Part shown: positions 59,326 to 60,481 of the stretch, in pieces
Numbering within the stretch: the stretch's first letter is position 1
Layout of the letters: every line of letters begins with the position of its first letter
DNA from: Escherichia coli
GTDB lineage: Bacteria > Pseudomonadota > Gammaproteobacteria > Enterobacterales > Enterobacteriaceae
NCBI RefSeq assembly: GCF_003991155.1
Contig: NZ_CP031293.1
Direction: 5' to 3' (one strand)
Length of the DNA: 64,000 nucleotides
Position numbers and translations under genes: made by a program
Notes under the pieces: model-generated
Seen by the model: the letters and a program-made list of their open reading frames with translations, nothing else
The model's database searches: none
What the model was told of the DNA's origin: nothing

Positions 59326-60029
59326 ATACTTTTACCTTTTCTGATGAAGCTCAAATACTAACTGTATATAATTTTTCACAAGACTCCCAAGAATATATCG
59401 GTGAGTCTGATGCATACATTGCACCTAATACAGGCTTGCCAAATTATTGCACATTAATTTCACCTCCCGAAAAGGCTCCTGGTTTTACTCCAGTGTGGGA
59501 GAATGAAACATGGAGACTTATTGAAGATCATCGAGGCCAAACTGTTTATAACAAAGTTGATGGTAGCCAGCTTATTATTCAAGAATTGGGCCAATTACCT
59601 GAAAATGTAACAGTCATTTCCCCGACAGGTTCTTTTGAACGTTGGGATGGTGAAAAATGGCAACCATCTATAACCGATGCTAAAGAGGCGAAATACTCTG
59701 CAATCAAAAATCAACGCGATGCCATCACAACCGATTACATCATCATCAACAACCATCACTTCCACAGTGATACAAATAGCCGTATCCAACAGCTTTCACT
59801 CACAAAAATGGGAGCGGAGAAAAAAATTCCGCCAGGGTTAATGTGGAAAACTAAAAATAATGGTCTGATTGAGTTAACCAACGAAATCGCTGCCCAGTTT
59901 GAATCGGTCACCATGGATCACGATATGCGCTTGTTCGCAAACGCCCAGCGTCATATCGCGGCGGTGGAAGCACTGGACGATATTCAGGCGGTGCTCGACT
60001 ACGATTATTCAACAGGCTGGCAACCATGA
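59322..60029 (+). CDS. Tail fiber assembly protein (chaperone)
   Basis: 235 aa; ATGA overlap with the fiber stop. Confidence 0.7.
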
Positions 60030-60481
60030 GTAAAACCACTGTCTGGCTCGCTTGTTATAAGGGCCGAACAGAGCACCGTGGTATTGCCCGACTGGCTGAC
60101 TGGCTTACCCGTAAAATCACACGCGGTAGTTATTCCCACTGTGAATTAGCCGTTAAGCATGGTGAAAAGAGATACCTTTGTTACTCCGCATCACTGCGCG
60201 ATCGCGGTGTACGCGGAAAAATAATGCCATTGCCAGCGGATAAGTGGGATATGCTGCCGCTCCAGGCCAGCCTTCAGGATGTGGAAACTTTTTTCCGTAA
60301 ACATGATGGCAAAAAATATGACTGGCGCGGAGCATTAGGAATTATTATCGGTAATAAAGAACAGCGCGATCGCCTGTTTTGCAGTGAATTTTGTGCTGAA
60401 TTTCTGCAACTGAAGGAAAGCTGGCGCTATTCTCCAAACCACTTGTACGCTTTAGTCAGTAGCTGGCAATATCAGCCGTAA
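60026..60481 (+). CDS. Hypothetical Cys/His-containing protein at the distal end of the tail operon
   Basis: 151 aa, translationally coupled to the assembly gene; conserved-looking Cys/His positions; no confident family. Confidence 0.5.
   Translation: MSKTTVWLACYKGRTEHRGIARLADWLTRKITRGSYSHCELAVKHGEKRYLCYSASLRDRGVRGKIMPLPADKWDMLPLQASLQDVETFFRKHDGKKYDWRGALGIIIGNKEQRDRLFCSEFCAEFLQLKESWRYSPNHLYALVSSWQYQP

Follow-up and report, generated by a model that had tools for sequence, protein, structure and literature searches.

The gene examined here (151 codons with an ATG start, positions 60026..60481, plus strand) closes a tail-only, tailocin-like element, which occupies positions 44796..60481 on the plus strand of the analysed window, a stretch of 64,000 nucleotides from Escherichia coli (contig NZ_CP031293.1, assembly GCF_003991155.1). 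Its sequence agrees at 100% identity with that of E. coli 2016C-3878 (NZ_CP029747.1), and the limits of the element were taken from the RefSeq annotation of this identical record and from the list of open reading frames (ORFs). In NZ_CP029747.1 the 151-codon ORF is labelled 'hypothetical protein'. Upstream of it, in the same direction, lie a tail fibre gene (57745..59325), which according to Pfam and RefSeq encodes a tail-collar fibre N-terminus, fibre repeats and a Collar domain, and a tail fibre assembly (Tfa) gene of 235 amino acids (aa) (59322..60029), which is matched by Pfam Caudo_TAP and DUF4376 and by several PHROG tail fibre assembly families. The ATG of the 151-codon gene overlaps the TGA of the Tfa gene in the tetranucleotide ATGA (60026..60029), as read directly from the sequence, and translational coupling is therefore predicted. 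A preliminary description of this DNA had reported exactly such a 151-aa ORF coupled to the fibre assembly gene, and both the ORF and the Caudo_TAP/DUF4376 protein in front of it are confirmed here. An ATGA-type overlap of 4 nucleotides is also present in most of 80 related viral loci. As set out below, the gene, a member of PHROG 1128, very probably encodes a divergent permuted papain-like protein of the YiiX/YaeF (C92) type, a putative Cys-His enzyme that is found next to Tfa in very different phages.

The ORF is a real gene under strong purifying selection and not a chance reading frame, since it is annotated in RefSeq, has many homologues and shows a low ratio of nonsynonymous to synonymous substitutions (dN/dS). 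A word-indexed search gave 89 clusters of homologues and an exhaustive profile search 4,437 (clusters at 50% identity, E ≤ 1e-3), nearly all of them consisting of proteins of 135-180 aa that stand alone. The median pairwise dN/dS of 20 distinct enterobacterial alleles is 0.075 (98 pairs), and the His and Cys motifs are unbroken in all 80 of the related viral loci.

The protein has no match in scans of Pfam and NCBIfam. The Pfam model PF05708 (Peptidase_C92, gathering threshold 27 bits) does not match it even at E below 1, and only two of 59 homologues give weak matches to this model (best E 0.0053). Three relatives in the same genomic position exceed the threshold (39.6, 38.6 and 33.1 bits). 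The profile of PHROG 1128 covers residues 1-150 with an E-value of 8.1e-59. A search of PDB sequences with the single sequence resulted in a weak match to 3KW0 in two segments, which span exactly the SH and CSE motifs; with a profile of the 59 homologues this match improves to E 3.5e-5, and E. coli YiiX (2IF6) appears as the second hit. Alignment of the family to a YiiX alignment with hhalign gave a probability of 82.7% (E 1e-5). Moreover, when jackhmmer was started from a C92 enzyme that is validated by Pfam and occupies the same syntenic position, it recovered all 59 family members together with 21 of 21 YiiX proteins.

The AlphaFold2 model (mean predicted local distance difference test, pLDDT, 81; predicted template modelling score, pTM, 0.78) contains an antiparallel sheet packed by helices, with the cysteine at the start of a helix and the histidine on a strand, and in the sequence the catalytic Cys comes after the catalytic His, as it does in circularly permuted enzymes. 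A Foldseek search with this model found nothing. A search of BFVD returned chiefly uncharacterised phage proteins; one of the matches, an 821-aa myovirus protein labelled 'Cysteine peptidase' (A0A8S5PP64), holds the same fold as one of its domains. We conclude that the protein very probably has a circularly permuted papain-like fold of the NlpC/P60 type. Since it misses the C92 threshold, the family is best filed as a divergent sister of YaeF/YiiX (MEROPS/Pfam C92) within the permuted NlpC/P60 clan, outside the curated Pfam family. The thiol-peptidase-like site that the preliminary description had considered, and the permuted papain-like fold for which it proposed a check, are thus supported by profile comparison as well as by structure prediction. 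A second fibre chaperone had also been considered there; the ORF has no Tfa-domain match in Pfam, NCBIfam or PHROG, which match the upstream gene strongly.

In the YiiX/BcPPNE group the catalytic set, the order of which is circularly permuted, comprises a Cys and a His, the polar Glu64 as third residue, and a signature Tyr (PMC3142127). Three of these positions have a counterpart that is invariant in 59 of 59 homologues. The predicted catalytic histidine, His38 (codon 60137..60139), lies in the YSHCE motif on the model strand 36-44 and aligns with His49 of YiiX and BcPPNE. Tyr98 (codon 60317..60319), the predicted fourth catalytic residue, corresponds to the signature tyrosine of NlpC/P60 proteins and aligns with Tyr115 of YiiX. 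The predicted nucleophile, Cys119 (codon 60380..60382), belongs to the FCSE motif, is the first residue of the model helix 119-126 and aligns with Cys128 of YiiX and Cys154 of BcPPNE. By analogy with these enzymes, the protein is probably catalytically active. Glu40, Ser56 and Asp59 are invariant among the 59 homologues, too. The R-D-G-G-V-R loop of the protein aligns with the E-D-D-G-V-R loop of 3KW0, which binds a lysine ligand (PMC3142127), and by this analogy the conserved Asp59 loop suggests the recognition of a lysine-like amine.

The preliminary description had pointed to conserved Cys and His residues in three motifs, and this holds for part of them only. His38 and Cys119 are invariant, but the cysteine of WLACYKG (Cys10) is kept in just six of 59 homologues, and Cys39 (SYSHCEL; 58/59) is typical of the close family, as is Cys52 (52/59). 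In wider relatives Cys39 and Cys52 are replaced (SHVE, SHAE, WSHVAL, CYHVGF), so that only His38 and Cys119 are universal; a metal site may nevertheless exist in the close family. The protein has neither a hydrophobic segment nor a signal peptide. A reading of 'VWLAC' as a lipoprotein signal was rejected, because the hydrophobic stretch is too short, the lipobox is poor and Cys10 is not conserved.

The genomic context of the family was studied in 80 viral contigs that had been picked by similarity to the protein (43-98% identity) and in eight further contexts, 88 in total. A co-directional ORF of 180-275 aa adjoins or overlaps the start of the gene in about 75 of the 80 contigs, and a Tfa-type gene is located directly upstream in 81 of the 88 contexts. 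The upstream protein carries a C-terminal DUF4376 domain in 49 of them; a second upstream family (32/88) shares the N-terminal Tfa region (hhalign 97%) and has a different C-domain. Three loci have a fibre gene directly 5' of the homologue, and two of these are decayed loci, since they retain remnants of DUF4376: in one (L022, about 5660-6001) the DUF4376 coding segment is intact, but its frame is not that of the truncated fibre gene, and in the other (L020, about 5930-6001) the last codons ('YDYTPGWQP*') alone remain before the enzyme gene. The fibres of both loci end in a glycine-rich domain. The downstream neighbour is variable and may encode a D12 methylase, the sheath, a hexapeptide acetyltransferase, an M15 peptidase or other proteins. 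The arrangement of Tfa and enzyme genes thus recurs in Mu-like, P2-like and other architectures.

The association was also found when the search started from the Tfa side. The DUF4376 domain of this Tfa matched 15 records of the phage database, 14 of which are shared with the match list of the 151-aa protein. The fifteenth record (MW202455.1) has a gene for a 'permuted papain-like amidase enzyme' immediately 3' of the DUF4376 gene, the product of which matches our family in hhalign (97.8%) and Pfam C92 weakly. In another prophage of E. coli, which has a divergent Tfa of the DUF4376 type, a homologue with 48% identity adjoins the Tfa gene. The word-indexed search for DUF4376 homologues found close enterobacterial relatives only. 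We additionally considered 50 IMG/VR loci chosen solely by DUF4376 similarity to a divergent branch; 47 of them contain enough downstream sequence. The diverse DUF4376 alignment was too variable for a pattern scan, so that a two-sequence alignment was used instead. A C92-type enzyme is encoded directly 3' of DUF4376 in 34 of the 47 loci, its match starting 2-50 nucleotides past the DUF4376 match (about 200 nucleotides in two longer proteins). These 34 loci span at least five very divergent enzyme subgroups, three of which pass the Pfam C92 threshold, although about 11 are near-identical members of one subgroup. One of the loci scored as negative (L115) shows a His...Cys pattern by eye. An apparent Tfa-enzyme fusion in GC-rich loci was dismissed, as the open segments lie in another frame than DUF4376 and represent adjacent genes.

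Among 5426 complete E. coli genomes, the baseplate block of the element is present in 194 and the 151-codon gene (≥80% coverage) in 195, but this particular pair of fibre and Tfa genes in just 77. Practically all copies of the element thus contain the gene, and absence of the ORF from otherwise identical gene clusters, which the preliminary description had named as refuting its reading, is not what we observe. In variant E. coli loci the baseplate protein J is about 98-99% identical and the 151-aa protein 97-98%. The C-terminus of the fibre and the N-terminal half of Tfa are only 5-25% identical (5-20% for the Tfa half between E. coli variants), whereas the DUF4376 half (about 59676-60026) reaches 93-100% and is conserved along with the 151-codon gene. 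The C-terminal part of the fibre and the variable, fibre-matched N-terminal half of Tfa are thus swapped together between strains as a cassette (within 57745-60029; loci L097, L098 and L090), the boundary of which lies inside the Tfa gene. This mosaic fits the published modular architecture of Tfa, with a variable fibre-binding N-domain and a conserved trimerising C-domain; in phage Mu, Tfa stays on the fibres (PMC9608196). The exchanged C-terminus of the fibre in our window (about 59150-59325) ends in repeated His-x-His motifs. Metal-binding HxH repeats, which these motifs resemble, are present at the fibre tip of T4 gp37.

There is no sigma-70-like site on the plus strand between the fibre gene and the 151-codon gene. 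The only strong hairpin in the terminator scan, a GC-rich one at 60486..60508, begins 5 nucleotides past the stop codon (-24.6 kcal/mol, z -4.3); on the minus strand it reads as the terminator of a convergent nucleotidyltransferase (NTase) gene, and the transcript of the tail operon probably stops there, too, as far as can be predicted from the sequence. The GC content at third codon positions (GC3) of the 151-codon gene (44.7%) is similar to that of the fibre (40.9%) and Tfa (37.7%) genes. Because there is no internal promoter-like site, a hairpin follows the stop and GC3 is similar, the gene resembles a terminal cistron of the late tail operon and not an independently expressed moron.

The best explanation for these observations as a whole is that the gene encodes a small, Tfa-coupled cytoplasmic Cys-His enzyme for an accessory step of fibre maturation in phages and tailocins. 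We put this forward tentatively and would give it slightly less than an even chance. A functional tie of the protein to Tfa or the fibre is, on balance, the somewhat better bet. Since the unit with the Tfa C-domain persists through swaps of the fibre tip, we infer that the enzyme acts on or with the Tfa-fibre complex; that it does so in the cytoplasm of the producing cell is possible, though well short of probable. What the data show is the gene with its fold class, its conserved catalytic residues, its synteny and its purifying selection, whereas activity, site and substrate are inferred.

According to the proposed mechanism, the gene would be translated with the Tfa gene as the final cistron of the late tail operon. 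The enzyme and the conserved Tfa C-domain would form a unit that outlasts exchanges of the fibre tip and of the N-domain of Tfa. In analogy to NlpC/P60 enzymes, His38 on its beta-strand would activate Cys119 at the N-terminus of its helix, and Cys119 would attack the carbonyl of an amide, ester or thioester, assisted by Tyr98. The resulting acyl-thioester intermediate would be resolved either by water, as in a hydrolase, or by an acceptor amine, as in an acyltransferase. Inside the producer cell the enzyme would trim or release Tfa, or it would acyl-modify the fibre tip or Tfa. A more specific version would be that Tfa of the DUF4376 type (and of the HI1402 type) and the enzyme constitute a two-component module that covalently processes the complex of fibre and chaperone: it would release or trim Tfa by proteolysis, or it would attach an acyl (lipid) group to a lysine on the fibre tip or Tfa. 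Fibre assembly would then include a hitherto overlooked enzymatic step in a broad range of phages and tailocins; this version is rather doubtful.

Several observations weigh against an accessory role in fibre maturation. The position of Glu64 of YiiX/BcPPNE is taken by Ser54/Ala55, so that the triad's third polar residue is missing at its expected place. The invariant Glu40 or Ser56 might stand in for it; moreover, LRAT can do without this third residue, and PPPDE1 does not have one (PMC3142127). An AlphaFold run on a fused DUF4376-linker-enzyme sequence with paired rows gave two well-folded domains without confident packing (pTM 0.49), which is only a weak negative, since Tfa is trimeric and no predicted aligned error (PAE) was available. 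The end of a late operon is a typical place for cargo genes. The mosaic of the variant loci alone is no proof of a functional pairing, because the usual architecture of Tfa would also lead one to expect a conserved C-domain (PMC9608196). The enzyme survives the deletion or disruption of Tfa in two or three decayed loci, and 13 of the 47 loci selected by DUF4376 (about 28%) lack it. Considering these 13 loci and the redundancy among the positive ones, the association of Tfa and enzyme is strong but not obligatory. In the classical Tfa systems of Mu, P2 and lambda such an enzyme was not seen. As many such systems appear to do without it, it is not needed for Tfa function in general. Finally, the homologue of Ralstonia jumbo phages lies apart from fibre genes; in RP12 (L008, 3995-4438) it stands alone on the opposite strand amid unrelated small genes, far from the fibre genes and thus as an exception to the Tfa synteny.

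The likeliest alternative is a late enzyme directed at the host, which would likewise be a Cys-His hydrolase or acyltransferase. It would act on a molecule of the host cytoplasm or inner leaflet, such as a phospholipid, a lipoprotein or lipopolysaccharide precursor, or a peptidoglycan precursor with a diamino acid. It could possibly aid lysis, mask receptors on the producer (self-protection or exclusion) or block re-adsorption to debris, and it would reside beside the fibre cassette either to match the specificity of the fibre or since operon ends tolerate cargo. We consider this rather unlikely. The gene has no promoter or terminator of its own and its start overlaps the Tfa stop codon, unlike classical morons, and its GC3 is close to that of the fibre and Tfa genes. 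Its adjacency to Tfa outlasts divergent enzyme subgroups and hosts, while all other neighbours change, and strong purifying selection maintains it in a tail-only element that has been stripped down. PADLOC defence models do not match it. Moreover, the enzyme remains constant while the fibre tip varies, contrary to what would be expected from matching to a single receptor.

It is also conceivable, though unlikely, that the enzyme is borne by the particle. Tfa on the fibre tip would recruit it via the C-domain, and it would cleave or deacylate a receptor-proximal molecule on the target cell. The tight pairing of the enzyme with the conserved Tfa C-domain would agree with this, and Tfa stays on mature fibres of Mu and Ur-lambda (PMC9608196). 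NlpC/P60 and CHAP enzymes are common as virion-associated hydrolases, C92 homologues of poxviruses are viral as well, and the 821-aa myovirus protein in BFVD carries the same fold in a large protein. However, virion proteomics does not show the enzyme, a paper on the virion proteome of SuMu is silent on a homologue, no docking to DUF4376 is confidently predicted in the fused model, a free thiol nucleophile is less robust outside the cell, and the protein has no carbohydrate- or surface-binding module.

We regard it as very unlikely that the protein is a non-catalytic one, that is, a metal-binding protein or a structural second chaperone or adaptor on a retained papain-like scaffold. This would account for the lack of the usual acidic triad residue at the aligned position, for the retention of three Cys and one His in the close family (Cys119 and His38 in 59/59, next to Cys39 and Cys52 at the frequencies given above) and for the title 'metalloprotein' of the PDB entry of YiiX. 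However, in very divergent subgroups it is Cys, His and Tyr that are invariant, and Cys39 and Cys52 are replaced. The dispensability of the third residue in LRAT and its absence in PPPDE1, as mentioned above, and the invariant Glu40 as a possible substitute speak in the same direction.

The two remaining explanations have practically no probability left. The suggestion in the preliminary description that the gene is cargo of the neighbouring SPFH/NTase pair rests on physical proximity. This pair, encoding an SPFH protein (slipin) and an RlaP-family NTase ('RNA repair pathway DNA polymerase beta family'), is located at 60496-62420 on the minus strand, with 14 nucleotides between the stop codons of the 151-codon gene and of the convergent NTase gene. 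However, the pair is found in 1631 of the 5426 complete E. coli genomes vs 202 for the 151-codon gene, it lies on the opposite strand, the neighbours of the ORF are different ones in Salmonella and in phages, and where the tail element is lacking, the pair occupies this same site and is flanked by a zeta-toxin gene and yjbD. It is therefore a chromosomal pair outside the tail element, of which the 151-codon gene is a part. Neither the NTase nor the SPFH protein is matched by PADLOC models. Altogether, of what the preliminary description had supposed, the enzyme-like Cys/His site has held, and the link to the SPFH/NTase pair has not.

An enoyl-CoA hydratase or carnitine racemase-like enzyme is suggested by nothing else than the name that PHROG 1128 and many GenBank entries have inherited. 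No crotonase match was found with Pfam or NCBIfam in the protein or its 59 homologues, and 151 aa are far too small for a crotonase fold. The matches of the 3KW0/YiiX profiles, hhalign and jackhmmer show that the name is wrong, as fold and profiles are papain-like. Misnamed members include SuMu_51, Pm86 ORF70 and RP12 ORF176, and the family has been interpreted in terms of fatty-acid metabolism or virulence (PMC4532294; bioRxiv 10.1101/2025.06.28.662109). A genome-wide association study of H. parasuis listed the misnamed gene among the accessory genes associated with clinical isolates.

The element itself begins with a Mor gene on the minus strand, followed by genes for a holin, a lytic transglycosylase, a membrane protein, a Gp37-family protein, the sheath, the tube, an assembly chaperone, the tape measure, a tail protein and the proteins X, D, V, W, J and I, and it ends with fibre, Tfa and the 151-codon gene. 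According to the annotation of the identical record, the stretch from lysC to the NTase gene is devoid of genes for a head, an integrase or replication. With contractile-tail, regulator and lysis genes but without those for head, replication and integration, it has the gene content of an R-type tailocin, and judged by its genes alone the element looks like one. The tape measure gene (50193-52568) is annotated as a pseudogene in RefSeq ('internal stop'), yet it contains an uninterrupted ORF of 791 codons from a TTG, with stops in this frame upstream only. It may be intact with another start or truncated at the N-terminus.

The same element occupies the same chromosomal site in Salmonella, where it ends in the triad of fibre, DUF4376 and 151-aa-type genes. 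One Salmonella locus (L090) contains an O-antigen modification operon (gtrA, a glycosyltransferase gene and a GT_STM0557-type gene; 2633-5468) between the baseplate genes V and W, and a hexapeptide acetyltransferase gene 3' of the homologue. Related enterobacterial 'viruses' in IMG/VR are contigs of 14-18 kb that end at the 151-codon gene. We found no publication on this element, including the literature on Salmonella STM tags and on tailocins; the 'tailocin' of a paper on E. coli ST131 is a different, complete P2-like prophage, and a paper on programmed inversion turned out to have no bearing on the gene.

The results presented here are of interest in several respects. They correct a misannotation that is propagating, and they describe a large family (the 4,437 clusters mentioned above) outside of Pfam coverage as a divergent, signal-peptide-less branch of the C92 group, the biochemical function of which is itself unsolved. 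The assignment of the fold is not entirely new. Automated annotation already labels some relatives C92 amidases, and a preprint from 2025 on the Alicyclobacillus phage MMB025 linked a PHROG-1128 protein to cysteine peptidases and phospholipases by HHpred. A literature search found no paper on the function of the family or on a coupling of C92-type enzymes with Tfa, and the demonstration for the whole family, the missing Glu and, above all, the systematic Tfa coupling appear to be undescribed as far as these searches reach. The pairing across very divergent enzyme subgroups, hosts and tail architectures suggests that a dedicated cysteine enzyme can take part in the maturation of fibres or in the function of their tips. 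Phages and tailocins are retargeted by swaps of fibre and chaperone cassettes, and an overlooked third gene could affect their yield or activity. The host element, which is conserved at a single site of the chromosome in both E. coli and Salmonella, may moreover be an undescribed enterobacterial tailocin.

Among known systems, YiiX and BcPPNE are the most similar ones. The 151-aa protein is about 40-50 residues shorter and has no signal peptide, which YiiX has at the N-terminus. It possesses Ser/Ala instead of Glu64 and an invariant Glu40 two residues past the His; it is phage-borne and Tfa-coupled and stays below the Pfam C92 threshold. YiiX and BcPPNE have been proposed to be fatty-acyl-amino acid amidases, which is itself unproven (PMC3142127). 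The C92 enzymes of environmental phages (MW202455.1 and the IMG/VR loci L111, L114 and L150) occupy the same slot after a DUF4376 Tfa, are 139-207 aa long and have the same His...Tyr...Cys order. They pass or approach the Pfam C92 threshold, whereas our family does not, and their identity to the 151-aa protein is low. Other Cys-His enzymes of the permuted or related NlpC/P60 types, namely the acyltransferase-phospholipases LRAT/PLAAT, the lysine N-fatty-acyltransferase RID of MARTX toxins, the type VI secretion system effector TseH, the PPPDE/DeSI isopeptidases, the picornavirus 2A H-box/NC proteins and poxvirus G6R, are much more distant and differ in accessory elements, substrates and contexts, and we know of no coupling to tail fibre assembly for any of them.

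With the Tfa chaperones (U of Mu, G of P2 and Tfa of lambda) the 151-aa protein shares the cassette, and it is predicted to be co-translated and is conserved with the Tfa C-domain. However, it resembles them neither in sequence nor in fold and has an enzyme-like active site instead of a chaperone architecture. Accessory (moron) genes are well known at the ends of fibre cassettes, for instance Z/fun of P2 between G and FI, or cor and llp beside receptor-binding genes, and the 151-codon gene shares this general position, as it lies between fibre/Tfa and sheath genes in P2-like relatives. Morons of these types are expressed from signals of their own and differ even among close relatives. In contrast, the 151-codon gene overlaps the stop codon of Tfa, has no promoter-like site of its own and is constant across the element.

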